Below are positions 12,570 to 61,224 of a DNA stretch of 64,000 nucleotides, in pieces. This DNA comes from Escherichia phage vB-Eco-KMB43: the sequence record OR525698.1; one strand, 5' to 3'. The position numbers and the translations under genes were made by a program. Numbering within the stretch: position 1 is the stretch's first letter; each line of letters begins with the position of its first letter. Below the pieces are notes generated by a model. The model worked only from the letters and a program-made list of their open reading frames with translations, did no database searches and was not told the DNA's origin.

Positions 12570-13205
12570 TCAAGCGAATGTAGAAAGCAAACGTTTTGTT
12601 TCTTTCAGTTGTCGTTCAAGATCTTTGCGTTTCTCTTTAAGTTGCATTTTAGCATTATTTCGCTGTTTTTCAACATCTTTATCAATATGCTTAGTCCAAT
12701 TATCAATATCAGAATAAGTTGGCATACCCAATTCTAGACCTAATGCGGTTGGATACAGGGTAACAGTCCATAAACCGCTAATCTTCTTAAATAGGTCGGG
12801 GTGTAGTGTACTATCTACATCTTCCGGTGTCAACTCTTTTTCTTCTTTCAGTGGTGGGATCTCGTCATATGGTTCCAGTGCATTTACTTTAATATCAGAT
12901 ACCTCATCAAAGAATCCGCGTACATCCGCAGGAAATACACAAGCAATTTCCCAACCGTGATCACGCAGAGAAGTAATATTTTTCACTTCCCCACCATGTG
13001 TGATGATTGATGTGACATTGCCATCAAGGTCCACCGAATTTACGAGAAATGGCTTATCGTCTGTCAGATCATTATAAAACTGGGCTTCGGCTGTAGTCAT
13101 CTCCAGAAACAGATCTCGGATCGGACGACCATCAGGTGCGTTACCTTCCTTGAGAGTATAAAAGCGACTTACGATCCATTTTGGCGGTAAAGCATTAGCA
13201 ATCAT
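12570..13205 (-). CDS. hypothetical protein (211 aa), T4 61.2-like position
   Basis: ORF between primase and helicase; size and position resemble T4 61.2; no motif recognised. Confidence 0.4.
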   Translation of the reverse strand: MIANALPPKWIVSRFYTLKEGNAPDGRPIRDLFLEMTTAEAQFYNDLTDDKPFLVNSVDLDGNVTSIITHGGEVKNITSLRDHGWEIACVFPADVRGFFDEVSDIKVNALEPYDEIPPLKEEKELTPEDVDSTLHPDLFKKISGLWTVTLYPTALGLELGMPTYSDIDNWTKHIDKDVEKQRNNAKMQLKEKRKDLERQLKETKRLLSTFA

Positions 13206-30060: not shown

Positions 30061-30319
30061 AAATCGCCCTCAGTTCTTTATAGCCTCCAATGTGCTCGTT
30101 GTCAATGAATATCTGGGGGTATACAAACCGGAGGCTCTTTGAGTTTAGCCTCCCCGCCAGTTCTTCAATCATATCACGGTCGGGAATAATGTCAACCCCG
30201 ACCTGCTTGAATACTGGTTTAAGTGTATACGGAATACCCAGATCATCCAGTAGCTTCATTGCACTAATACAACCATAACAATGATAAGCCTCTTTCGGTA
30301 TACCGTATATCTCGATCAT
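30050..30319 (-). CDS. glutaredoxin-like protein (NrdH-like)
   Basis: 89 aa; active-site-like CYGC near N-terminus and C-terminal IGGY..L motif; adjacent to anaerobic nrd genes. Confidence 0.55.
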   Translation of the reverse strand: MIEIYGIPKEAYHCYGCISAMKLLDDLGIPYTLKPVFKQVGVDIIPDRDMIEELAGRLNSKSLRFVYPQIFIDNEHIGGYKELRAIYDY

Positions 30320-30819
30320 TTCTCAGCCTTTAATCTTTCCAATTCTTCTTCCAGTTCCTTGATCCGTCGGTCACGTTCAAAGTCACGCTGCAACTTAGTG
30401 GCGAATACTCGTTTAAACTGATTGTAATCATCGATTTTAAACACTTCTTCTTCGCCATAGCGACGTACAGAAACTTCGTAGTTGTTGAAAAATTGTTCCA
30501 ACATTGCATCAGTAGTCAGTTCTGACGACACCACTTTAAAATAACGTTCTTCTGATTGCAAAAACCAGTTGTGCGCGTATTCCCGTACATCATCAACATC
30601 TCGACAGGTGTATGTTTTTCCATCAATTTCAATCGCAGAAACATATTCGATATCTGACGCAATTTTTTCAAAAGCGATAACTTTAAATGTACGGTCACCG
30701 ATAAAGTCTGCTATTGCATCATTTGCAACACTGGTTGCAAATGCTTTCCGCGCTCGATCGTTTTTCCACTGATAGGTCATACCAACAACAAACATATTAC
30801 CAACCTCGCTCTTTACCAA
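30316..30819 (-). CDS. paralog family A member (167 aa), coiled-coil C-terminus
   Basis: shares YQWKND, IEIDGKTY and FATKL motifs with ORFs at 30797-32621 and 36462-39099. Confidence 0.45.
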   Translation of the reverse strand: MVKSEVGNMFVVGMTYQWKNDRARKAFATSVANDAIADFIGDRTFKVIAFEKIASDIEYVSAIEIDGKTYTCRDVDDVREYAHNWFLQSEERYFKVVSSELTTDAMLEQFFNNYEVSVRRYGEEEVFKIDDYNQFKRVFATKLQRDFERDRRIKELEEELERLKAEK

Positions 30820-31621
30820 TCAAAAATTCAACTTCACGACGTTTAATGTCTTCTTGAAGGTCTTTAATCTTCTGGCGATCTTGCATTATTTCGTCCATCT
30901 TGTCAAGTGCTGCGATGAAATCATCGAAACGTTCAAAGGTTTTACCTTCATTTGCTTCGCCAAATTTAACCATTGTCAGGCCGTAACGACTACTAAACAG
31001 ACGTTTCAACTGTCCAACGATTTTAGAATCAGTGGTTATAACTTCCAATTCTTCTACTTCACGAAAGAATTTTCTATCAGAATCAATAAACCAGCTAGTT
31101 CCTTTATGGTCTCTATCTTCGGTTGCGCTCATTAGAGTATGGTCTTTACCATCAATTTCAATTACATCAATTTGCCCACATGGACTAACATTTTTAACAG
31201 TAAAAGGTCTATAATTTATTGCTCGTGCAATAACATAATTAAGGTTAGATACGTTTTCAGCATAATGGCAGAAGTCTGTCATAGCATTCGCATCTTTCCA
31301 AGTATAAGTTTTACCAACTTCCCATTTCTGGGGAACTTCTTCAACTTCACGAAAGAATTTTCTATCGAATGGACTAAAGAAATATGTTGCAGTCCAAATG
31401 TCTTTTCCTGTAGCAGTTTTCGCCGTATGATAAACACCGTCTAGCTCTATTGCATTAATCCAACCGTTGCCATCGATCTCGATGATGGTAAATGGCTTGT
31501 CACCAATAGATGCACTAATATCGCTGTTAAGTGGAGAAAGAACACCTTCTCCGGTAGTAATAAACTCAGTTTTAGCGTTTTCATCTTTCCAAGTGTAAGT
31601 TTTACCAATTTCCCATTTCAT
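30797..31621 (-). CDS. paralog family A member with two tandem domains (274 aa)
   Basis: two internal repeats, each KWE.GKTYTWKD ... RPFTV ... IEIDG ... RKFFREVEE. Confidence 0.5.
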   Translation of the reverse strand: MKWEIGKTYTWKDENAKTEFITTGEGVLSPLNSDISASIGDKPFTIIEIDGNGWINAIELDGVYHTAKTATGKDIWTATYFFSPFDRKFFREVEEVPQKWEVGKTYTWKDANAMTDFCHYAENVSNLNYVIARAINYRPFTVKNVSPCGQIDVIEIDGKDHTLMSATEDRDHKGTSWFIDSDRKFFREVEELEVITTDSKIVGQLKRLFSSRYGLTMVKFGEANEGKTFERFDDFIAALDKMDEIMQDRQKIKDLQEDIKRREVEFLIGKERGW

Positions 31622-31633
31622 AATATATTCCCC

Positions 31634-32134
31634 TTAACCGATTTTATCAAGTTCGTTTAATGCTTTCTCTGCTTCCTGTATAGCTTGCACCCTTTCCGGC
31701 ATTTTGTAAAGAAAATCTTTCAACTCTTCAAAACTGGAGATATGACGCAAGGCGTTAGCACCGATAGCCGCATGTGATTTGCATTCAAAGCGGATTTTAT
31801 AATTATCCATCGCCAATTTGAGAAGGTCTATTAGATCATATTCATGACCAGGTAATAAAACTTCTTTGAAGCACGCTCGGTCACCATCGGAAAACCATAT
31901 ATTATCACCAATATCGATAGAACTAATATAATCCCCTTCGTGATTATAGATTGAACGCACATTACCCCAACGGTCTACCGTAGCGACAGTAAATGGTTTA
32001 TCTAGATATGTAAACATACCATCAATATTAGGTCTTTGTTCGTAACTCCAACAATCACGCAAAATACGCTTTTCGTATTCGCCAACCAACGCATAGGTCT
32101 TACCTTCTTCCCATTTCATAATATTATCTCTCAT
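31634..32134 (-). CDS. paralog family A member (166 aa)
   Basis: MKWEEGKTY ... KPFTV ... CFKEV domain. Confidence 0.45.
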   Translation of the reverse strand: MRDNIMKWEEGKTYALVGEYEKRILRDCWSYEQRPNIDGMFTYLDKPFTVATVDRWGNVRSIYNHEGDYISSIDIGDNIWFSDGDRACFKEVLLPGHEYDLIDLLKLAMDNYKIRFECKSHAAIGANALRHISSFEELKDFLYKMPERVQAIQEAEKALNELDKIG

Positions 32135-32621
32135 TTTTGATACGTGATTCTAATTGGATCATACGGTCGCGCGTTTGCTTGTATTCACGGATAGCACCGA
32201 TCCGGCTAGGCATACCATCTAGGACGCTCTTAATCCCTTCTAGGGTAGTGATTTTAGCAATGCTATTATGTAACCCCATCTTATCGATCAACTGAATGTC
32301 GTAGGCTTCCATAAGCAGACCCAGACGTTCTAAGGTTAGATCTGGTTCTTTAACTTCTTTAAAGAATCGACGTTCACCAGCCCAAAACCACGCACCGTGC
32401 GCACCAATTGGAGTGTCTCGAACAGAAATACATTTACCATCACTTAACGAGATTTCAAGAACATGACCCTCATTACTCATAACCTCGACTGTAAAAGGAC
32501 GTCCATCAAGAAACTCAGCAACTTGACGGTTGATTGACAGTTCAGATTTGGTAAATTCTGCTTTCTTCTCATCACCATCAAGAGTGTACATCTTACCCAA
32601 TTCCCATTTCATAGCAATCAC
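32124..32621 (-). CDS. paralog family A member (165 aa)
   Basis: MKWELGKMY ... RPFTV ... RRFFKEV domain. Confidence 0.45.
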   Translation of the reverse strand: MIAMKWELGKMYTLDGDEKKAEFTKSELSINRQVAEFLDGRPFTVEVMSNEGHVLEISLSDGKCISVRDTPIGAHGAWFWAGERRFFKEVKEPDLTLERLGLLMEAYDIQLIDKMGLHNSIAKITTLEGIKSVLDGMPSRIGAIREYKQTRDRMIQLESRIKNER

Positions 32622-32622
32622 C

Positions 32623-33126
32623 TCAAATAATTTTTACTGGAATACTATTAACAATCTTGTATTGTACTTGATTGTCAGACCCCCGCCACGGCTTCTTCGT
32701 TGGCATATCTTTAATATAACGACCATCGATGAACATGTCAACTGATTCTACAATTTTTCTTTGCTCATCATTCAATTGGTCAAGGGTATAACCAGACCAT
32801 AGCCAAATATCTTTATTTGGCATCCATGATTTTACTTCATCGATGATCCGCTGTACACCCTTTAAATTGCGTTTATACAGTGGATCTCCACCTAAGAATG
32901 TTAGCCCCTGAATAAAATCAGGTCTAAGCAGATCCAGAATCAATCCCATTGTATCATCGGTGAATGGTTCCCCGTTCTTAGGATTGAGTAGACTAGCATT
33001 AAAGCAACCATCACATGCGTGTGAACATCCGGTAACGTAAAGGGAGACTCTCACTCCCTCACCGTTAACCATATCACAATCTTTAATATCGGCATAGCGT
33101 AATTTGCCGTATGTATCAGAACTCAT
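32623..33126 (-). CDS. nrdG: anaerobic ribonucleotide reductase activating protein (radical SAM)
   Basis: CSHACDGC cluster and TFLGGDP motif; ATG at 33126 (track start is TTG). Confidence 0.85.
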   Translation of the reverse strand: MSSDTYGKLRYADIKDCDMVNGEGVRVSLYVTGCSHACDGCFNASLLNPKNGEPFTDDTMGLILDLLRPDFIQGLTFLGGDPLYKRNLKGVQRIIDEVKSWMPNKDIWLWSGYTLDQLNDEQRKIVESVDMFIDGRYIKDMPTKKPWRGSDNQVQYKIVNSIPVKII

Positions 33127-33268
33127 ATTCAATTACCCCGAACTCGTTTACAATCTGCGCTTTATAGTAACCACCGCGAGATGCTAATAGATAAGCTGGG
33201 CTTAGGTATTCGTATTCGCGGATTTCTACTTGTGCGTTTTCAGTTTCCCAAATCAGTAAAGTCCACAT
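33116..33268 (-). CDS. small hypothetical protein (50 aa)
   Basis: ORF track runs through the upstream promoter; internal ATG at 33268 follows a GGAGAATCAAAT RBS. Confidence 0.25.
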   Translation of the reverse strand: MWTLLIWETENAQVEIREYEYLSPAYLLASRGGYYKAQIVNEFGVIEYEF

Positions 33269-33310
33269 ATTTGATTCTCCTGTAAAGTTGTATCTCGTCT
33301 TGATGAATAT

Positions 33311-33339
33311 AGTATAGGGGATCGCGAGATCCCCGTCAA
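33311..33339 (-). promoter_or_regulatory. promoter-hairpin cassette (TTGACG, hairpin GGGGATCTCGCGATCCCC, TATACT)
   Basis: upstream of small ORF and nrdG. Confidence 0.5.
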
Positions 33340-33357
33340 GCATTTATTTTAAAAATC

Positions 33358-33903
33358 TCAAAGTATTCTTTCTAGCCATTCGCGACCAGTCATATGAGTA
33401 CCCGCAATCATAAAATTATGGTCTGGCGAGGACCGAAACATATCTAAAATAAACTTCCGACATTCCTCATAGTCATCACGTTTAAGATAGACCACGTTCT
33501 CGCCAGTGCCAATAACTCCTTTACGATAGCCATGTTCTTTACGCGTAGACCATTGCACAGTATCCTTTTTAACTCGAATCACGATTGGTTCCCAATATCC
33601 AGCACATCCAGCATGACCACACGAACAAGTAAGGAAGTATTGACCCTTTGCTTTGTTCTCATCCCATCCAACATTAATCGGATAACATTCATGAAACAAT
33701 GCTAAAACATCATGTGTCTCGTCAATATCTTTATCGTCAATTCGTGCAGTAAACACCCAAACAGGGATCTTATTACCTATTGGTTCATAATCATCGCCCC
33801 ACTCGTCATAAATAGTTTCTAAGGTCATATCAATATTGATTGATTTTGCCGCGTCAATATGTCGTTGTGCTTTACGTTTACGGTTTAATGATTTCATAGT
33901 CAC
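33358..33903 (-). CDS. hypothetical protein (181 aa)
   Basis: ORF between nrdD and nrdG; Cys/His-rich stretch CSCGHAGCAGYW. Confidence 0.4.
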   Translation of the reverse strand: MTMKSLNRKRKAQRHIDAAKSINIDMTLETIYDEWGDDYEPIGNKIPVWVFTARIDDKDIDETHDVLALFHECYPINVGWDENKAKGQYFLTCSCGHAGCAGYWEPIVIRVKKDTVQWSTRKEHGYRKGVIGTGENVVYLKRDDYEECRKFILDMFRSSPDHNFMIAGTHMTGREWLERIL

Positions 33904-33914
33904 CTCACATTATT

Positions 33915-34454
33915 TCAAAGATCGCGATATTGTACATTATGAAAATGAGAACTTGCATTACCAATATTGTAGATAACAAATTCTTCATCCGGCGCTTGCG
34001 CTACAAATTGAGTATGAGCAACCGCCACAACCTTAAAAATACGATCCGTGATCTTGTGTTTAATTTCTGCCCCTACTTCCATAGGAACATATTCATTTGT
34101 TTCTGTTTCAGTCGCAAAACAGCCATCTTCTTCATAAGCACGAACAAATCGGTCGCAATCAGTACGCTTAACAAATTCAAGAGTATATAATTCTCGTGAA
34201 TTGTCGGTATAGACCAATACAGAATTATTATGATAGCGAATCACATACAGGTTATTATCATCGTCAATTACGCAAAAGCTACGGATTCCTTCGCCTTGAC
34301 TCCAGCAGATATTAACCACCGTTCCTCTAATAAAAAAACTTTCCTTTAAATTAAAACTAGCCAATGTGCTAGCGTGCATTTTAACAACAACGCCATCACC
34401 AATTTCCAGTTTACGAAGTTTAACTTCTTTGCTCAGTACACAAAACATCATCAT
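33915..34454 (-). CDS. hypothetical protein (179 aa)
   Basis: ORF directly downstream of the nrdD terminator-promoter cassette. Confidence 0.4.
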   Translation of the reverse strand: MMMFCVLSKEVKLRKLEIGDGVVVKMHASTLASFNLKESFFIRGTVVNICWSQGEGIRSFCVIDDDNNLYVIRYHNNSVLVYTDNSRELYTLEFVKRTDCDRFVRAYEEDGCFATETETNEYVPMEVGAEIKHKITDRIFKVVAVAHTQFVAQAPDEEFVIYNIGNASSHFHNVQYRDL

Positions 34455-34483
34455 GTTATCCTCTCGTTGTTTTCGATGTGAGC

Positions 34484-34511
34484 ATTATACATTAGCTAAT
34501 CAGGTTGTCAA
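34484..34511 (-). promoter_or_regulatory. early promoter (TTGACA, 16 nt, TATAAT) directly after nrdD terminator
   Basis: consensus hexamers. Confidence 0.55.
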
Positions 34512-34519
34512 CACCCCAA

Positions 34520-34550
34520 AACGAAAAAGCCGACCCTTTCGGATCGGCTG
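34520..34550 (-). terminator. rho-independent terminator after nrdD
   Basis: AGCCGATCC-GAAA-GGGTCGGCT hairpin then TTTTTCGTTTT. Confidence 0.6.
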
Positions 34551-34554
34551 AAAA

Positions 34555-36417
34555 TTACATGTGCTTAACGCGGTTTACCATCTCGGAGTGTTTCCCGTGG
34601 TTAAATGGACGCAGATCAACAGATCCAAGATATCCACTAACGCGACGGATAACATTCATCTTTTCCAGATTGTCATTGCCGCAATCAGGGCAAACAAAAC
34701 CAGACTCGGTCGCTCTCATTTCCTTATTAGATCCGCATACATGACATACATCAGAAGGAGTATTAACACCGAAGTAGTGCAATTTATCCATTGCATAGTC
34801 TACTACAGTTTCAAGACCTTTCAGGTTGTTTTTCATGTCTGGGAACTCAACATAAGAGATCATGCCACCGGACGCCAGCCAGTGATAATCTTTCTCAAAG
34901 TCGATTTTCTCAAACGGTGTGACTTTCCGGTCTACGTCAAGGTGGAATGAGTTGGTGTACCAGTCTTTATCGGTAGCACCCTTAACAATACCAAATTGCT
35001 CTCGGTCCAGTCGATTAAATCGATAGCAAAGGCTCTCGGCTGGAGTACCGTAAAGACTAAACCCAAGTCCGGTTTCGTCCTTCCATTTTTCAGTATAATG
35101 ACGCAAGATCTTAAGAATATGTTTACCGTATCGCTGCGCATCTTCCGAATCAAACGGATGAACACCAAACAGGACGCTCAATACCTCATGTAAACCAATA
35201 TATCCAAGAGAGATACTAGCGCGACCATCTTTCAACACTTCCAAAATTTCATCGTTTTGATGAATACGGAAAAACGCACCTTCGGTATACAGTACAGGAG
35301 CAACATTGGCTTTAGCACCTTTTAAAGCGTCTACGCGACTCATGAGCGCATCAAAGCAAATAGGCATACGATTAGCTAGCTCTTGTTCGAATAGCTCAAT
35401 TCTGCGCATTACAGACGCTTTACCAGCACGACGCGCGGCAATAAGGGCAATACGCGGAAGATTCAGAGTCACAACACCTAAGTTATTACGTCCGTCTAAT
35501 ACTTCCTCGCCTTTCTCATTATGCCACACACCCAGGAAGCTACGACAACCCATCGGGCTAACCGGAACACTAGATCCGGTGATACTACGGTTATTCTTCG
35601 CAGAGATATAATCAGGGTAAAGACGCTTACTAGAACATTCCAATGCAAGTTGCTTAATGTCGTAGTTCGGATCTTCCGGTTTAAGGTTTAATCCTTCTTC
35701 TAAGAACATCACCAGCTTAGGAAACACCGGAGTGATACCATCTTTACCTAAACCTTTAGTTCGAACGTTCAGGATCGCTTTCTGAATCAGTTTTTCTTCC
35801 CAGCTAGTCCCCATACCAAATGTTAAAGTCACAAAAGGTGTTTGACCGTTGGTGGAGAACAAAGTGTTGATTTCATATTCCAACGCTTGATACCCGTCTA
35901 GCGTTTCTTTTTCTGTCTTCTCTTGTGCATAGAGAGTATCCGCTTTGATTCCGTAGGTTTCGGCATCAGCAAGGTGTTTATGATATGTTTTCTCAACGTA
36001 TGGCGCTAAAACCTGATCGATGTTTGCAATTGTGGTCCCGCCATATTGATGACTTGCCACCTGTGCGATAATTTGAGCGGTTACAGCACAAGCAACGCCG
36101 ATTGATTTCGGACTTTCGATTTGTGCGCTACCCAATTTAAAACCATTCTCTAACATGTCTTTGAGGTTAACAAGACAGCAGTTAGTAAACGGCATAGCGG
36201 GTGCATAATCCATATCATGATAATGAATGTCACCGTCTACATGCGCTTTATAGATGTGCTCAGGTAACACGGTTTTAGCAATCTGTTTAGACACAGCACC
36301 AGCAATCAGATCTCGACGTGTCGGGAATGTTCGCGCGTCTTTGTTCGCGTTCTCTTTGCTTACTTCGTTTTCTTTACCCGTTGCGATCTCTGTAATGTCT
36401 TTGATTAGTTTTTCCAT
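34555..36417 (-). CDS. nrdD: anaerobic ribonucleoside-triphosphate reductase (class III, glycyl radical)
   Basis: 620 aa; C-terminal zinc ribbon CHVCG...CPDCG and glycyl-radical-type RRVSGYLG; T4 NrdD length. Confidence 0.9.
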   Translation of the reverse strand: MEKLIKDITEIATGKENEVSKENANKDARTFPTRRDLIAGAVSKQIAKTVLPEHIYKAHVDGDIHYHDMDYAPAMPFTNCCLVNLKDMLENGFKLGSAQIESPKSIGVACAVTAQIIAQVASHQYGGTTIANIDQVLAPYVEKTYHKHLADAETYGIKADTLYAQEKTEKETLDGYQALEYEINTLFSTNGQTPFVTLTFGMGTSWEEKLIQKAILNVRTKGLGKDGITPVFPKLVMFLEEGLNLKPEDPNYDIKQLALECSSKRLYPDYISAKNNRSITGSSVPVSPMGCRSFLGVWHNEKGEEVLDGRNNLGVVTLNLPRIALIAARRAGKASVMRRIELFEQELANRMPICFDALMSRVDALKGAKANVAPVLYTEGAFFRIHQNDEILEVLKDGRASISLGYIGLHEVLSVLFGVHPFDSEDAQRYGKHILKILRHYTEKWKDETGLGFSLYGTPAESLCYRFNRLDREQFGIVKGATDKDWYTNSFHLDVDRKVTPFEKIDFEKDYHWLASGGMISYVEFPDMKNNLKGLETVVDYAMDKLHYFGVNTPSDVCHVCGSNKEMRATESGFVCPDCGNDNLEKMNVIRRVSGYLGSVDLRPFNHGKHSEMVNRVKHM

Positions 36418-36461
36418 TGTATCACCTATGAAAAAGCGGGATTTCTCCCGCTCGTTGATAG

Positions 36462-36956
36462 TTATTTTACCAGTTCTGCTAATTCTTTTTCCGCCGCTTC
36501 CAGTTCAGCTTTCAGTTGTTTGATCTCTTGTCGCTTCTTATTAGCGGCTTCCTGCTTACTATTTCGGATAATCTGATCTAGATATGAATCCCACTCCTGA
36601 ATATTTTTGATAATGTAACCGTCAACATTAATTGGTCGGAGATTTAGTACAGCTTCCAGTTTAGTTGCAAAAACTTTAATTGCTGGTGTGAAGTATTCAT
36701 ACTCGTTATCTTCAAACCAATAGCCTAGACTTGCATTCTCAATACGAAGACGAAGTTCAAGATCAAGGTCTTTATCTTCGGTGTAAAGATCTTGCACATG
36801 CCCCATCGAACTAACAACAACTTTAAAACGAATTTTATCAACACCACCAAACACACCAGTAAGTATACCAGCAATTGAGCTATTAGCGCAAGATTGGTCG
36901 CTGAATGCGTCAAGGTTTTCTTTAGTTACAGTATACCAAACATCTTGTACCCACAT
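36462..36956 (-). CDS. paralog family A member (164 aa), coiled-coil C-terminus
   Basis: GYWFEDNEYEYF..FATKLE motif shared with 30316-30819. Confidence 0.45.
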   Translation of the reverse strand: MWVQDVWYTVTKENLDAFSDQSCANSSIAGILTGVFGGVDKIRFKVVVSSMGHVQDLYTEDKDLDLELRLRIENASLGYWFEDNEYEYFTPAIKVFATKLEAVLNLRPINVDGYIIKNIQEWDSYLDQIIRNSKQEAANKKRQEIKQLKAELEAAEKELAELVK

Positions 36957-36986
36957 AATATAATCCTCTCGTTGTTAAGTGGGAGT

Positions 36987-37014
36987 ATTATAGCATACTC
37001 CCTTCGCATGTCAA
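36987..37014 (-). promoter_or_regulatory. promoter-hairpin cassette (TTGACA; TATAAT in loop of GGGAGTAT/ATACTCCC stem)
   Basis: -35 overlaps stop codon of upstream gene. Confidence 0.5.
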
Positions 37015-38189
37015 ACACTAACTTTTTTCTTTACTGCTTTCACCTTCTGGCGAATTGCTCGAATCTCTTCGATCTCTTTTTCAGTCTCTTTAACAATTTC
37101 TTTGCGATTCTGAATATCTGTATCTAGATTCTCATCGAGTTTAGGAAGCATGTCGATCAAGAACTTTTTAAGGTCTTTCAGGTTGCGAATAACAGTACCT
37201 TCACCCATTACCGCAACACCCACACCATCCGGCAGATCACCAAACAGCTTAACCAGTTCAGACAGATGATCATGATCTTCTAGTGCTTCTTCCGGTTCAG
37301 ATGGCAGTTCAACAAAGTTATAACGTTCATCATTGCTGATCAAGTGATACCAGCAAAGCCCGAAAGATTTCGGTGTATATTCTACACCATCAATTTCAAC
37401 CGCGTCAACACTTCCATAATCATCTACTTTAGTTACCTTAAATCCTTGTCCCAGCTTTTGAACAATTTCAACAACATGACTTGATACAGTTTCAGCGGTA
37501 AACCAATATGGCAAATTATGCTGATTTGGCTTGTAGCGTTCACCTACTTTAAATCTCTGACCATCCGCTTGCATAGCATGAAATTGTTGTTGCGTGATTT
37601 CCGCGAAGTATTCAAATTCGCTACCGTCAAACAAGCAATTCCATTGATCACAAAAACGATCTGCCTTAACAGTTTCACCTTTCGCGGTGATCATGGTAGC
37701 TGATCCGTGCAATTCTTCTTCAACTAAAAAGCCATATTCGACAAAATCAACAAGTTTCATAGCTTCTTTGTGATCTGGATCATGCTCTCCCCAGAATCGC
37801 TTAAATTCTTGCAAACCTTCTGGGGTAAACGAATAACATTTACCTTTTTCAAAGTAAGTCGGCATTGCATCCTCTTTCTTGTTCATCGCTTCGTATGCCT
37901 CTTTTGAGATACGTTTAAAGTATTTGCGCTCATTGTTCATAATCATAGTAGCCCAATAATCCACAATATCATTAGCGGAATAAACTACATCTCCAGCTTC
38001 AATAGTAATAACATGACCGTGGTCATCTTTTTCTAATACTTTAAAGCCCTTTTCTACGATTTCAGCAACCCGAATATGACCACGGCGCGAAGCATCGGTC
38101 AGAATAATTGAATAGCGAGAAAAGTCTAGAAACTCATCTTTACCGCCTTCACGGAATGCATAGTAATGACCTTCAAAGAATTTAGCCAT
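37011..38189 (-). CDS. paralog family A member with multiple repeats (392 aa)
   Basis: repeated GFKVLEKDDHG / GFKVTKVDDYG and ERKYFKRI segments. Confidence 0.5.
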   Translation of the reverse strand: MAKFFEGHYYAFREGGKDEFLDFSRYSIILTDASRRGHIRVAEIVEKGFKVLEKDDHGHVITIEAGDVVYSANDIVDYWATMIMNNERKYFKRISKEAYEAMNKKEDAMPTYFEKGKCYSFTPEGLQEFKRFWGEHDPDHKEAMKLVDFVEYGFLVEEELHGSATMITAKGETVKADRFCDQWNCLFDGSEFEYFAEITQQQFHAMQADGQRFKVGERYKPNQHNLPYWFTAETVSSHVVEIVQKLGQGFKVTKVDDYGSVDAVEIDGVEYTPKSFGLCWYHLISNDERYNFVELPSEPEEALEDHDHLSELVKLFGDLPDGVGVAVMGEGTVIRNLKDLKKFLIDMLPKLDENLDTDIQNRKEIVKETEKEIEEIRAIRQKVKAVKKKVSV

Positions 38190-38220
38190 AATATAATCCT
38201 CTCGTTGTTTAGATGGGAGT

Positions 38221-38249
38221 ATCTTACTACTCCCGTTTCATCATGTCAA
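38221..38249 (-). promoter_or_regulatory. promoter-hairpin cassette (TTGACA; TAAGAT in loop of GGGAGTA/TACTCCC stem)
   Basis: same architecture as 36987-37014. Confidence 0.45.
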
Positions 38250-38830
38250 GCGTTAAATGACTTTTGGATCTCTTTCAGTTCAGCTACTTTATCGGCGCTA
38301 TATTTTGCTTGATGTTCCATGCGCTTAAGCTCACCTTTGATATAGGTTTCTAGCTTAGGTTTATTCTCAATCAGAAAATCTTTCAAGTCATCGGCATTTT
38401 TAAAGTATAGCTGATTGTCAAAGCTAAAATCTTCCAGCGTCAATGATACCAAAGAAGACTTCGCAAACAAGTTAATCAGACCTTCCAGAGATTCTTCTTT
38501 CTTAACTGGTTTCATTTCTTCAAACTGCTTTTTAGTGATGCGTTTAAAGTATTTGCGCTCGTTTGCAGCAATCAGAACAGATGCACCTTCATACCCATGA
38601 GTTTCTACCAGATACACACGCCCCATCGCATCAACAGTGAGAACTTTAAAGCCGTTACAAAGCACGTCATACAAGAACTTATTATGTTGCGGACATCGTT
38701 TGATAAATTCTGCGGCTGTTTCTGCACTACGGAAAGTGTAATAACGACCTCGTTCAAAAACAGCATCATTTGAAGACTTAGCCGGATACAATTTATACGT
38801 TTTCTGTACCATAATATAATCCTCTATCAT
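38246..38830 (-). CDS. paralog family A member (194 aa)
   Basis: NGFKVLTVDAMG and ERKYFKRI motifs. Confidence 0.45.
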   Translation of the reverse strand: MIEDYIMVQKTYKLYPAKSSNDAVFERGRYYTFRSAETAAEFIKRCPQHNKFLYDVLCNGFKVLTVDAMGRVYLVETHGYEGASVLIAANERKYFKRITKKQFEEMKPVKKEESLEGLINLFAKSSLVSLTLEDFSFDNQLYFKNADDLKDFLIENKPKLETYIKGELKRMEHQAKYSADKVAELKEIQKSFNA

Positions 38831-38838
38831 TTCACTAA

Positions 38839-39099
38839 TTAAACAGCACGGAACAGAATGCGCTCACACGGAAGCAGCATAAATTCCCAACGCGGGTCAA
38901 AGTCTTTAGCGGTGTATGTTTTCCCATCAACCGCTATTTCACTTACATAACCAACAGGTGACACTTTAAGAACAGTAAACCCATTCTTGATGACTTCGTA
39001 GGTATCTTTCACCCCTTCGTATTCATCATCTAAGAAGTCTTTATGTGCTTGCTCAGATTTAAAAACATAGGCCACACCGGATTTAAACATCTTACGCAT
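38839..39099 (-). CDS. paralog family A member (about 86 aa)
   Basis: KNGFTVLKV...VDGKTY...ERILFRAV; ATG at 39099 with GGAGAATCAAC RBS; track ORF extends through the promoter. Confidence 0.4.
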   Translation of the reverse strand: MRKMFKSGVAYVFKSEQAHKDFLDDEYEGVKDTYEVIKNGFTVLKVSPVGYVSEIAVDGKTYTAKDFDPRWEFMLLPCERILFRAV

Positions 39100-39130
39100 T
39101 GTTGATTCTCCTTCTTGATTAGATGGGAGT

Positions 39131-39159
39131 ATTTTACTACTCCCATTTCTTATTGTCAA
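39131..39159 (-). promoter_or_regulatory. promoter-hairpin cassette (TTGACA; TAAAAT in loop of GGGAGTA/TACTCCC stem)
   Basis: same architecture. Confidence 0.45.
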
Positions 39160-39943: not shown

Positions 39944-40699
39944 TTATACCTCATTCAGTTCTATATCAAGTTCATTTTCAATAATATAGGCATTAACTGC
40001 CCGTGCCGCATCATCTTCTGTGTCAAATCTTCCTATATACACACCGCGAACTTTAGCACCGTAATTACCTTGTTTTGGTACTTTGTAAACGTATCTATGA
40101 CGGGAACTTGCTGCTTTTTGGAGCTTCTTGCCATATTCAGACTTTGCATATTCTATATCATCAATCTCGTTTATACAAGACCTATCACCAAAATGTTTCA
40201 ACGCGGCAAGATTATATGCATACGCCGCGCCGATCTCGGAGGGAAAATATCCTAAATGTATCGACTTCCCATCCAACATTATTGCACCAGTCCAATAACC
40301 TTTATTCTTATTAAACGACACACCTTTATACTTCGAATATGTTTTGCATTTGGTCTTGCTCATATTCATATTATTTTGTTTGCGTGTCGTCTCTCTAAGG
40401 TTTTCAATGCGGCTATTATAACGATCTCGGTCTTTATGATCTATATACTTAGGACAATGACCATGAAACATATGATAGATAACACGGTGCATACGTTCGT
40501 ATCGCTCGCCAGTCCATACAATACGATACCCATCGGGGGTATCACTTCCAGCTAATCCGTTTATAACACCTTTTCGGTGCGGGTGAATCTTCCACCTAAG
40601 AAAACCATCATCATAATAAAACCGTGAATGATATAAATCATATAAACGTTTATCTTCTGGAGTCTTGTGTATAACCTCATATTTTAACATTGGTGACAT
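39944..40699 (-). CDS. HNH homing endonuclease with AP2-like DNA-binding domains
   Basis: HRVIYHMFHG...IDHKDRDRYNSRIENLR HNH motif; YKGVSF..GYW...AAYAYNLAALKHFG and YRGVY...AARAVNAY AP2-like modules. Confidence 0.75.
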   Translation of the reverse strand: MSPMLKYEVIHKTPEDKRLYDLYHSRFYYDDGFLRWKIHPHRKGVINGLAGSDTPDGYRIVWTGERYERMHRVIYHMFHGHCPKYIDHKDRDRYNSRIENLRETTRKQNNMNMSKTKCKTYSKYKGVSFNKNKGYWTGAIMLDGKSIHLGYFPSEIGAAYAYNLAALKHFGDRSCINEIDDIEYAKSEYGKKLQKAASSRHRYVYKVPKQGNYGAKVRGVYIGRFDTEDDAARAVNAYIIENELDIELNEV

Positions 40700-43120: not shown

Positions 43121-43495
43121 TTAAAAATCTTCTTCCGGTTTATATCGACCGTCATCGACTGGTTTTGGACTGAATCCTTTATGCGTGCGCGGCTTCGCTT
43201 CCGGTTTACCAGCAATCATCAAACCAAAACATTTCAGCCCCTTATAACACATAACAATATCAACCACGGTCCACGTTATAGGCCATAAGATTGCAGCAAT
43301 ACAAAATGCTCCTGTATCGACCTCTTTGGTGTCCTTGTCGAATCTGGCGTACAAGCAGAATACTAGATACGAGATCATTGCACCAGTAGTCCAGATATAA
43401 AGCACATTAACAATATCTTGTGTTGTCACATTATCCTCCTTACATGTCTTGCAGTGCATAAAAGCATTTTTCTTCGTAGTCATAGAAAATGTCAA
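43121..43495 (-). CDS. membrane protein (124 aa)
   Basis: two or three hydrophobic helices; start uncertain because of overlap with upstream ORF. Confidence 0.35.
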   Translation of the reverse strand: MTFSMTTKKNAFMHCKTCKEDNVTTQDIVNVLYIWTTGAMISYLVFCLYARFDKDTKEVDTGAFCIAAILWPITWTVVDIVMCYKGLKCFGLMIAGKPEAKPRTHKGFSPKPVDDGRYKPEEDF

Positions 43496-43718
43496 AGTAT
43501 GCTTTTTCTACATACTCACCATTGATCCAAGCGGCAGTAACAATCAGAGTGGTCCAGTTAGATCCGCTCTCAACGGTAAAGGTTTTAATACCCAGCTTCA
43601 CAGCAAGGTCACGAGCAAACTGGTCACAACCACGGCAGGAAGTGATATTGGAAGTTTTGATTTTAAAGCCACCGCGAGTTTTAGAAATTTCTACTTTAGC
43701 GAAAGACAGGTTGCTCAT
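43440..43718 (-). CDS. hypothetical protein (about 92 aa)
   Basis: ATG at 43718 after AGGAGAATCAAA RBS; track ORF extends through the promoter. Confidence 0.4.
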   Translation of the reverse strand: MSNLSFAKVEISKTRGGFKIKTSNITSCRGCDQFARDLAVKLGIKTFTVESGSNWTTLIVTAAWINGEYVEKAYFDIFYDYEEKCFYALQDM

Positions 43719-43760
43719 TTTGATTCTCCTTAAGAAAGTGTGTTTCGTTTTGATGTGTGT

Positions 43761-43789
43761 AGTATAGGGGATCACCGATCCCCTGTCAA
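43761..43789 (-). promoter_or_regulatory. promoter-hairpin cassette (TTGACA, hairpin GGGGATCGGTGATCCCC as spacer, TATACT)
   Basis: 17 nt palindrome exactly fills the spacer. Confidence 0.5.
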
Positions 43790-43806
43790 CAACTTTTTTT
43801 ATGATT

Positions 43807-44127
43807 TTAGTGAATTAACTCTACACCAAAATGAGGCACAGAGAACGCCTTACGAAACACATATTCATCATGTTTAGGAATCGCGCCTAACCTCTCTATT
43901 TCGCTCGCTAACACGATAAACTGTTTATCTGGTGCATATGCCTTGTGTGCTTCAACAACGCACGGAAAACGCGTTTTAGAGAGTTCTGGATAGTTTTCTG
44001 AATCCAGAAGGACAATGAATACCCTGTTACATTGATTGTAGAATCCTGTTTTTGATTTCATCAAGTTTTCTTCTCTGTACAATTCGTGCAATCTTCCTTT
44101 CATGATTTCGTTGGTTCTTGTCTTCAC
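43807..44127 (-). CDS. hypothetical protein (up to 106 aa)
   Basis: ORF; 5' part overlaps the next ORF, true start probably internal. Confidence 0.3.
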   Translation of the reverse strand: MKTRTNEIMKGRLHELYREENLMKSKTGFYNQCNRVFIVLLDSENYPELSKTRFPCVVEAHKAYAPDKQFIVLASEIERLGAIPKHDEYVFRKAFSVPHFGVELIH

Positions 44128-60782: not shown

Positions 60783-61157
60783 TTAAGAAAATTTTACTTC
60801 GTCTACAATGTCTTTCATGACATTGATTTCCATTCCGGTCAGAACACGTTGGAACATGTGCTGCACATACGCTTTCAGGTATTCATTTGATGGCTTGCTA
60901 TCGAAAGTCTTTTTAGTGTAGTAGTCATCACCGAAAGCTACTGTAATTACATTTTCGTCGTCGTTCCAAGCGATATAAGCAAATTTGCCGTTATCCCAGA
61001 AGCGAGCACTAATTGCTACTTTTGTTGAATCGAATCCTACTTCGCTGTGAGATTCAAGAACTACTTGCGTGCCAGTTTCTTTATGAATGTAGTAGCGGGA
61101 TACTAAGTCAAAGTTACGGGTGTAGTGACATTCGAATTTATCTTTAAACATCATCAT
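60783..61157 (-). CDS. hypothetical protein (124 aa)
   Basis: ORF with GGAGAATCAAAAA RBS, promoter and terminator cassette upstream. Confidence 0.4.
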   Translation of the reverse strand: MMMFKDKFECHYTRNFDLVSRYYIHKETGTQVVLESHSEVGFDSTKVAISARFWDNGKFAYIAWNDDENVITVAFGDDYYTKKTFDSKPSNEYLKAYVQHMFQRVLTGMEINVMKDIVDEVKFS

Positions 61158-61195
61158 TTTTGATTCTCCTAAGTGTGTTTCGTTTCGATATGTGC

Positions 61196-61224
61196 ATTAT
61201 GCTATAGTCGTTTATGGTTGTCAA
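61196..61224 (-). promoter_or_regulatory. early promoter (TTGACA, 17 nt, CATAAT)
   Basis: downstream of terminator 61228-61262. Confidence 0.5.

Follow-up and report, generated by a model that had tools for sequence, protein, structure and literature searches.

The GoF/Frd.2/MotB.1 proteins of phage T4 were described by Kim et al. 2025 (PMC12152347) as a family with an 'LSm-like' (SH3-like) beta-barrel, in which the N-terminal domain of GoF is nearest in the PDB to FeoA-type SH3-like domains and variable C-terminal parts are attached. In the present study, we analyzed a stretch of 64,000 nucleotides from Escherichia phage vB-Eco-KMB43 (sequence record OR525698.1), hereafter called the window, in which eight open reading frames (ORFs) lie in two clusters around the nrdD and nrdG genes. 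A preliminary description of this DNA had regarded the eight ORFs as an expanded paralogous family built on a module that was not recognized as a described domain. Profile matches place the module in the family of T4 GoF and Frd.2, and the best explanation overall, which we consider likely, is that the GoF/Frd.2/MotB.1 family has undergone a lineage-specific expansion at this locus in an RB49-like Krischvirus.

The T4 goF mutants D25Y and G84R permit growth on certain rho mutants, and GoF(D25Y) lengthens the half-life of the gene 41 leader transcript independently of Hfq (Kim et al., PMC12152347). GoF is an abundant early protein (about 20,000 copies in each cell), and both GoF and MotB.1 run partly as dimers. 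Deletion and amber mutants of goF and motB.1, as well as an amber mutant of frd.2, show normal plating and burst, and frd.2 was scored as the one T4 fitness gene of unknown function in a CRISPRi-ART screen on the standard host. The promoter/stem-loop cassettes named PeSLs are a second described system that concerns this locus. They are known from phages phi1 and RB49 (Arbiol et al. 2010, PMC2839356; Comeau et al. 2014, PMC4122927), where they were shown to promote early transcription strongly, to terminate transcription, and to mediate modular shuffling (PMC2839356), and nrdD is among the PeSL-associated genes listed in PMC2839356.

All eight ORFs were found on the minus strand at the positions described previously. 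They have in common an N-terminal module of about 90 amino acids (aa), the consensus of which, KWExGxxYT..F..F.V..VD..G.V..IE..G...F..ER..F.EV, is as first described. A Tyr, two Phe, a Val, and a Gly residue are invariant, and no Cys or His is conserved. In all-against-all BLASTP comparisons, seven of the eight proteins were linked with E-values down to 3e-14 (1e-5 for the weakest links). A profile made from ten copies of the module detected the remaining protein (36462-36956), which had been held out of it, at E 1.7e-6. With the same profile, the 274-aa protein was resolved into two modules and the 392-aa protein into three, which confirms the multiple copies proposed for these two members. 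The shared motifs are statistically significant by both the alignments and the profile. The family is not limited to the eight, as we found a ninth member at a distance from the two clusters. The members are as follows.

30316-30792, minus strand: 158-aa member with an ATG start (MFVVGMTY); one module (residues 7-100; module profile, E 5e-29), a C-terminal alpha/beta region, and a helix; matches phrog_5347 at E 7e-53.
30797-31621, minus strand: 274-aa member; two tandem modules (1-96 and 96-192, 52% identical) and a C-terminal region; matches phrog_5347 in two stretches at E 5e-93.
31634-32119, minus strand: 161-aa member starting with MKWEEGK; one module and a C-terminal region; BLASTP E 3e-14 across 154 aa with its neighbor at 32124-32612.
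32124-32612, minus strand: 162-aa member starting with MKWELGK, directly downstream of nrdG; one module; the most variable member, with at least three allele classes in Krischvirus; absent from phage KFS-EC.
36462-36956, minus strand: divergent 164-aa member; one module and a C-terminal helix with a clear heptad pattern; E 1e-16 with a broader profile that was trained on it, and E 4e-4 with phrog_3710.
37011-38189, minus strand: 392-aa member; three tandem modules (2-98, 108-203, and 209-298) and a C-terminal region; matches phrog_8944, 'goF mRNA metabolism modulator', at E 1e-211, and is named frd.2 in the RB49 and JSE records.
38246-38812, minus strand: 188-aa member starting with MVQKTYKLY; one module, the sole basic one (isoelectric point (pI) 9.4), and a C-terminal region; absent from KFS-EC.
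38839-39099, minus strand: 86-aa member starting with MRKMFKSG; the module alone, without a C-terminal region; matches phrog_16115 at E 1e-56; absent from KFS-EC.
12570-13205, minus strand: ninth member, 211 aa; one module, a long linker, and a C-terminal helix; in the interval between primase gene 61 and helicase gene 41.

The likely starts at 30792, 32119, 32612, 38812, and 39099 replace those of the longest ORFs. For the 158-aa member, the longest ORF begins at a TTG codon at 30819, and the ATG start agrees with the GEC-3S and RB49 annotations.

The ninth member was detected at E 2e-7 to 3e-7 with a profile not containing it, and its ortholog in phage ECD7, 'Dc2', was a Foldseek match of the structural model. 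The corresponding T4 interval, between genes 61 and 41, holds 61.1, 61.2, sp, 61.4, and dmd; the anti-toxin gene tifA lies there as well. T4 gp61.2 was considered as a counterpart of the ninth protein and rejected, as it gave no match in the six-frame scan of T4. The ninth gene sits beside gene 41, and it is on the leader of gene 41 that T4 GoF(D25Y) acts. Weak matches at 43443-43814 (E 0.011) and 60786-61196 (E 0.03-0.06) of the window were left out of the count because both fall in unrelated PHROGs. A profile scan of the remaining 100 kb of RB49 revealed no further member; the count for the genus is therefore nine genes with 13 modules, compared with three genes and three modules in T4.

A profile built from the window copies alone detected T4 GoF with E-values between 5e-9 and 1.5e-10 and T4 Frd.2 with E-values between 1e-6 and 2e-6, and these two were its sole clear matches when 150 kb of T4 was scanned in six frames. 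T4 MotB.1 was matched by the broader profile (about 97 module copies) at E 3e-5. Seven of the eight window proteins matched phrog_622, which includes T4 GoF (E 5e-38) and Frd.2 (E 4e-46), and three other PHROGs matched by window proteins carry the label 'goF mRNA metabolism modulator'. Some members are already labeled frd.2 or goF in the public records of RB49, JSE, and ECD7, the last of which has Frd.2 notes. Judging from these matches, the module of the window is the N-terminal domain of the T4 GoF and Frd.2 family. The module is thus not new, since Kim et al. 2025 described the family to which it belongs, but that family is itself not well characterized. Pfam and NCBIfam scans of all members gave sub-threshold noise only (for example, RecT, LYR, and a myosin SH3), and the best hit of a sequence-profile search of the PDB was an unrelated protein at E 0.13.

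The structure of the 32124-32612 protein was predicted with AlphaFold2 (predicted local distance difference test score (pLDDT) 77.9). In the model, the module is a five-stranded SH3-like or 'LSm-like' beta-barrel, that is, a predicted bent five-stranded antiparallel sheet with FeoA-type SH3-like domains closest in the PDB, the fold reported for the family by Kim et al. The FeoA neighbor is weak; a Foldseek search of the model against the PDB gave nothing at E<0.07. Against BFVD, 82 matches at E<=1e-3 were obtained, and among the matches listed, nearly all came from T4-type phages.

Seven of the eight proteins carry a C-terminal part of 65-95 aa after the barrel and linker, and one is the module alone. 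In these seven, four elements come after the module: first a short helix, then a beta-hairpin, then a helix with F/L..L, and last a long terminal helix. The preliminary description had further proposed a special C-terminal coiled coil common to the proteins at 30316-30819 and 36462-36956. This could not be upheld: the two tails align only at BLASTP E 0.23, the WF..E.YF motif is the last strand of the common module rather than a separate coiled coil, and the VFATKL segments of the two proteins are not at equivalent positions.

The host genome of the locus was identified by comparison with phage records. Fifty-eight records matched the stretch 30316-39159 at 92-98% nucleotide identity, all from RB49/phi1/JSE/GEC-3S-like coliphages (Krischvirus, Straboviridae). 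Positions 1-64000 of RB49 match the window nearly base for base in gene order and coordinates; on this comparison, the window is the first 64 kb of the genome of a Krischvirus, an RB49/phi1/JSE-like T4-type coliphage. The gene order, entirely on the minus strand, is dam, an HNH endonuclease gene, nrdC, gene 49, four family genes (cluster 2), nrdD, three unrelated ORFs, nrdG, four family genes (cluster 1), and nrdH. Cluster 1 is thus flanked by nrdG and nrdH, and cluster 2 by gene 49 and nrdD.

Some neighboring genes are variable as well. An HNH/AP2-type homing endonuclease gene (39944-40699, minus strand) lies between nrdC and dam in the window and in GEC-3S and is absent from that site in RB49, ECD7, JSE, and KFS-EC. 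In the retrieved stretch of phage JSE (5744-8366), a homing endonuclease gene is inserted and nrdD is split into two ORFs; nrdD of the window is intact. An unrelated 181-aa ORF between nrdD and nrdG (33358-33903, minus strand; phrog_8242) varies like the family genes, with 55-75% amino-acid identity across Krischvirus genomes and a synonymous divergence (dS) above 1.

Module identity among the paralogs ranges from 14 to 52%, with most pairs at 14-39% and the highest value between the two modules of the 274-aa protein. Because most module pairs are no closer to one another than to T4 GoF, the duplications are old. The modules of 30797-32612 group together, as do those of 37011-38812; the 30316-30792 module pairs across the clusters with that of 38839-39099, and the 36462-36956 module falls outside all others. 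The grouping by cluster, save for this one cross-cluster pair and the outlier, supports the local duplication that had been proposed.

The proposed diversification was likewise evident. Between Krischvirus genomes, the members show 56-97% amino-acid identity, whereas nrdD, nrdG, gene 49, and nrdH show 98-100%. The ratio of nonsynonymous to synonymous divergence (dN/dS) is 0.07-0.47 in the members, mostly above 0.15, and 0.01-0.05 in the neighbors. In four members, dS reaches 0.5-0.7, ten times the background; such values point to replacement by diverged alleles, beyond fast change in place alone. We consider the family identity and the duplication history, taken jointly, to be very likely.

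The 'promoter-hairpin cassettes' noticed in the preliminary description are, by their sequence layout, PeSLs: a TTGACA box, a GGGAGTA-N6-8-TACTCCC stem-loop across the -10 box, and a Shine-Dalgarno site. A cassette had been assigned to each gene. It is present at the genes starting at 39099, 38189, and 36956 and missing from the other five of the eight. The cassettes and a neighboring hairpin are as follows.

39100-39159, minus strand: PeSL upstream of the 86-aa gene; TTGACA, GGGAGTA-N6-TACTCCC over the -10 box (TAAAAT), and a Shine-Dalgarno site.
38190-38249, minus strand: a like PeSL, upstream of the 392-aa gene; in KFS-EC, the right half of the deletion junction derives from it.
36957-37014, minus strand: PeSL upstream of the 164-aa gene; TTGACA, 16 nucleotides, TATAAT, TG, and the GGGAGTA/TACTCCC stem; its promoter has 12 of 12 consensus matches.
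36430-36453, minus strand: putative intrinsic terminator between the 164-aa gene and nrdD; GCGGGA-GAAA-TCCCGC followed by TTTTT.

The last hairpin was read by eye and was not listed by the consensus scan; a terminator is annotated at the equivalent position of GEC-3S. The exact GGGAGTA/TACTCCC stem occurs three times in the 64 kb (36981-37002, 38215-38234, and 39125-39144), always in cluster 2. Because it occurs nowhere else in the window, the three cassettes are suggested to be copies of one another. Consensus sigma-70 promoters thus precede three genes, and cluster 1 has no promoter of its own: its genes abut or overlap each other and nrdG, leaving no space for a cassette, and cluster 1 would have to be transcribed by read-through from upstream. 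A further PeSL-like unit stands before a 179-aa ORF just downstream of nrdD (34484-34549, minus strand), where a strong terminator-like hairpin (AGCCGATCCGAAAGGGTCGGCT) with a T run is directly followed by a sigma-70 promoter with 12 of 12 consensus matches.

Copy number varies within the genus, as KFS-EC keeps five of the eight genes. Two of its missing genes are lost exactly between two PeSLs, and the third through a junction in a shared start region. Downstream of gene 49, the left flank of the PeSL ending at 39159 is joined to the right half of the PeSL ending at 38249; the two genes were thus lost by recombination between the two cassettes, an instance of the shuffling described for PeSLs. 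Downstream of nrdG, the junction lies within the ATGAAATGGGAA..GGTAAG start common to the cluster 1 paralogs. The three cluster 1 genes of the MKWE type have near-identical start regions (TATTATGAAATGGGAA..GGTAA at 31619-31633, 32117-32130, and 32610-32625), and the deletion junction falls in this microhomology. In the favored explanation, the genes arose from old tandem duplications of genes, together with duplication of modules within genes, in two plastic slots flanking nrdD-nrdG. Recombination, either between PeSLs or between paralogs at their conserved 5' ends, still adds, removes, and replaces genes there.

The family also occurs outside Krischvirus. A search of 1.84 billion representative proteins yielded 78 matches at E<=1e-3, of which about 65 look genuine. 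About a dozen long multi-stretch matches (807-3,364 aa) look spurious, because the proteins that were checked (807 and 1,528 aa, plus one of 466 aa) carry fn3, Big_2, or cadherin repeats. The others are short proteins of phage size in which the module is N-terminal, and several of them contain two or three modules. The ten that were looked up came only from metagenome assemblies, where the contigs reach about 176 kb. Word-indexed homolog searches returned close Krischvirus relatives only. On a metagenomic T4-like contig (SRR14300940, 7887-13566), a split nrdD and a gene resembling gene 49 have upstream of them five consecutive two- or three-module members, with SIR2, NADAR, HD, and Band_7 genes nearby. 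The slot between nrdG and nrdH is occupied by a single member in Salmonella phage Melville and by a weak candidate with two modules in Citrobacter phage IME-CF2. In KVP40, no family member was found near nrdDG, and T4 has none at this locus.

As for function, we tentatively propose, as the best of the available readings, that the proteins are early host-takeover adaptors with a role in mRNA metabolism, a reading that we hold to be possible rather than probable and that draws on analogy with T4 GoF. Early expression would be expected from the consensus sigma-70 promoters of the PeSLs and from the early, abundant expression of GoF in T4. The proteins would be individually dispensable, and their barrels may bind some macromolecule, of the host or of the phage, that takes part in mRNA fate; a protein target, for instance in the RNA-decay or transcription-termination machinery, is favored over RNA itself. 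A role in mRNA fate is suggested because GoF(D25Y) stabilizes gene 41 mRNA. If the role in mRNA metabolism is correct, a protein ligand appears somewhat more probable than RNA: 12 of the 13 modules are acidic (pI 4.4-6.1), which speaks against Hfq-like binding to RNA in general and favors a protein ligand, in keeping with the SH3/Tudor-like fold. Module pI values of 4.4-5.2 underlie this preference. The long C-terminal helix probably mediates self-association, multiple modules may give avidity or several specificities, and different paralogs may cover different targets or target variants.

Several observations weigh against parts of this interpretation. In the reporter assay of PMC12152347, the wild-type forms of GoF and MotB.1 did little, and because D25Y may be a gain of function, the link to RNA may not reflect the normal role. 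At the level of the family, all eight window proteins and the ninth were unmatched at E<=1 by Pfam FRD2 (PF03197). This model scores T4 Frd.2 at 133 bits over residues 26-128 and misses T4 GoF too, and it is thus a narrow subfamily model. The structural part is weakened by the model of the 392-aa protein, which is unreliable (pLDDT 54, predicted template-modeling score (pTM) 0.31) and shows no defined packing of the modules. Sequence comparison supports a common origin of the C-terminal tails moderately in six cases and not at all in two, and a crude heptad test was nominally significant for only 31634-32119 and 36462-36956 (32 of 1000 shuffles for the latter).

The proteins might instead form an anti-defense or host-range arsenal, in which each paralog is a decoy or an inhibitor of a different strain-variable immunity protein in an arms race. 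The preliminary description had leaned this way, since it took such duplicated and diversified arrays to be typical of host-interaction or anti-defense loci, and the observed variability would fit. Hypervariable mosaic alleles within a backbone that is 98-100% conserved, the varying copy number, and the location in plastic, PeSL-rich regions would all be explained, and dispensability on laboratory strains is expected of anti-defense genes. Most of the proteins are acidic, as are many phage inhibitor proteins, and the ninth copy occupies the gene 61-41 interval, the site of dmd and tifA in T4. Nevertheless, dN/dS is well below 1 in every member, the only genetic data on these proteins, which concern goF suppressors of rho alleles and the mRNA of gene 41, indicate RNA metabolism, and the scoring of frd.2 as a fitness gene on a standard host by CRISPRi-ART suggests a general role in T4. 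We regard an arsenal of this kind as the main rival to the adaptor reading, if a rather unlikely one.

Considerably less probable is that the proteins are true Hfq-like RNA chaperones, with LSm-type rings that bind RNA and are assembled, for example, from three modules and a helix-mediated dimer to give six barrels. Although Hfq is among the structural neighbors of the GoF N-terminal domain (Kim et al., PMC12152347), Sm and Hfq proteins were not among the top structural matches of our model, and Sm1/Sm2 motifs were not apparent, as no window protein matched Pfam LSM or Hfq at E<=1. The longer RNA half-life with GoF(D25Y) would suit a chaperone, but wild-type GoF was inactive in the RNA assay and all modules but one are acidic. 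GoF and MotB.1 are partly dimeric, and two- and three-module proteins exist; however, no homo-oligomer of GoF or of MotB.1 was predicted with confidence by AlphaFold3 (PMC12152347), and the packing in the three-module model is not defined.

A related proposal, to which we give equally little credence, is a diversifying toolkit in which each barrel would be specialized on a different host factor and the helix-dimerized multi-module members would form multi-barrel LSm-like assemblies. The factors may include the RNA degradosome, Rho, NusG-type partners, and RNA-targeting defense nucleases.

It is very improbable that the proteins are FeoA-like helpers that supply iron or Fe-S clusters to the adjacent anaerobic ribonucleotide reductase NrdD/NrdG. 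FeoA is the best structural match, and family genes adjoin nrdD or nrdG in Krischvirus, on the metagenomic contig SRR14300940, and in Melville, but the module has no conserved Cys or His and no Pfam match to FeoA (PF04023), nrdDG of KVP40 has no member nearby, the T4 copies lie elsewhere, and the nrdD region is a known plastic, PeSL-associated region. Finally, a chance or compositional similarity of the motifs without a real family, which the low identity of most module pairs might suggest, is already refuted by the BLASTP links, the detection of the held-out member, the independent PHROG profiles that connect the proteins, and the recovery of T4 GoF and Frd.2.

Much of the framework presented here is already published, namely the domain family, the cassettes, and the plasticity of the region, and some of the genes are labeled goF or frd.2 in the records. 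We did not find described the six further 'hypothetical' genes and the ninth gene as family members, the difference in number between Krischvirus (nine genes and 13 modules) and T4 (three), proteins that combine two or three modules and a long terminal helix, or the concrete PeSL-mediated and paralog-mediated deletions in KFS-EC. These new elements are modest, and the new members would not surprise a T4 specialist. GoF-family proteins are abundant, early, and conserved across T4-type phages, and the nine diverged copies of an RB49-type phage form a natural set in which the barrel's ligand could be sought by comparison, with its two- and three-module forms, one basic and 12 acidic modules, and several allele classes per gene. 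Such a set could discriminate a function in RNA metabolism from an action on host defense. If the barrels are indeed specialized on different host factors, comparison of alleles would reveal the role of the wild-type GoF family, a question that dates from the goF/rho genetics of the 1970s and 1980s. The locus is also a clean natural example of gene loss through PeSLs and paralogs in what is otherwise an ordinary hyperplastic region of a T4-type phage.

The comparison with known systems can be stated as follows. With FeoA, the SH3-like domains of the DtxR/IdeR type, Tudor, KOW, and EF-P domain I, the module shares a likeness of fold alone; there is no detectable sequence relation, there are no metal ligands, and the scores are below the usual confidence level. 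Kim et al. (PMC12152347) argued that Hfq and Sm proteins share the bent antiparallel sheet of five strands, but the window modules lack Sm motifs and are acidic rather than basic. As in the PeSLs of phi1 and RB49, a sigma-70 promoter and a stem-loop over the -10 box, a Shine-Dalgarno site, and a start codon occur between genes of a plastic region; the window differs in that three of the eight family genes have such a cassette and that these carry a single specific stem, GGGAGTA/TACTCCC.

The closest system remains the T4 family. Like the GoF/Frd.2/MotB.1 proteins, the window proteins are small and acidic, have an N-terminal barrel, a linker, and a variable C-terminal part, and are encoded within regions of presumably early, dispensable genes; the predicted bent five-stranded beta-sheet and its weak PDB neighbors, FeoA and IdeR, are also the same. 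In contrast to the three single-module genes dispersed in T4, Krischvirus, which is outside the subfamily Tevenvirinae, has nine genes and 13 modules, including two- and three-module proteins, and the window genes are clustered near nrdD/nrdG. Seven of the eight have a longer C-terminal part, which is without detectable match to the C-termini of GoF or Frd.2 and ends in a terminal helix of 35-55 residues.

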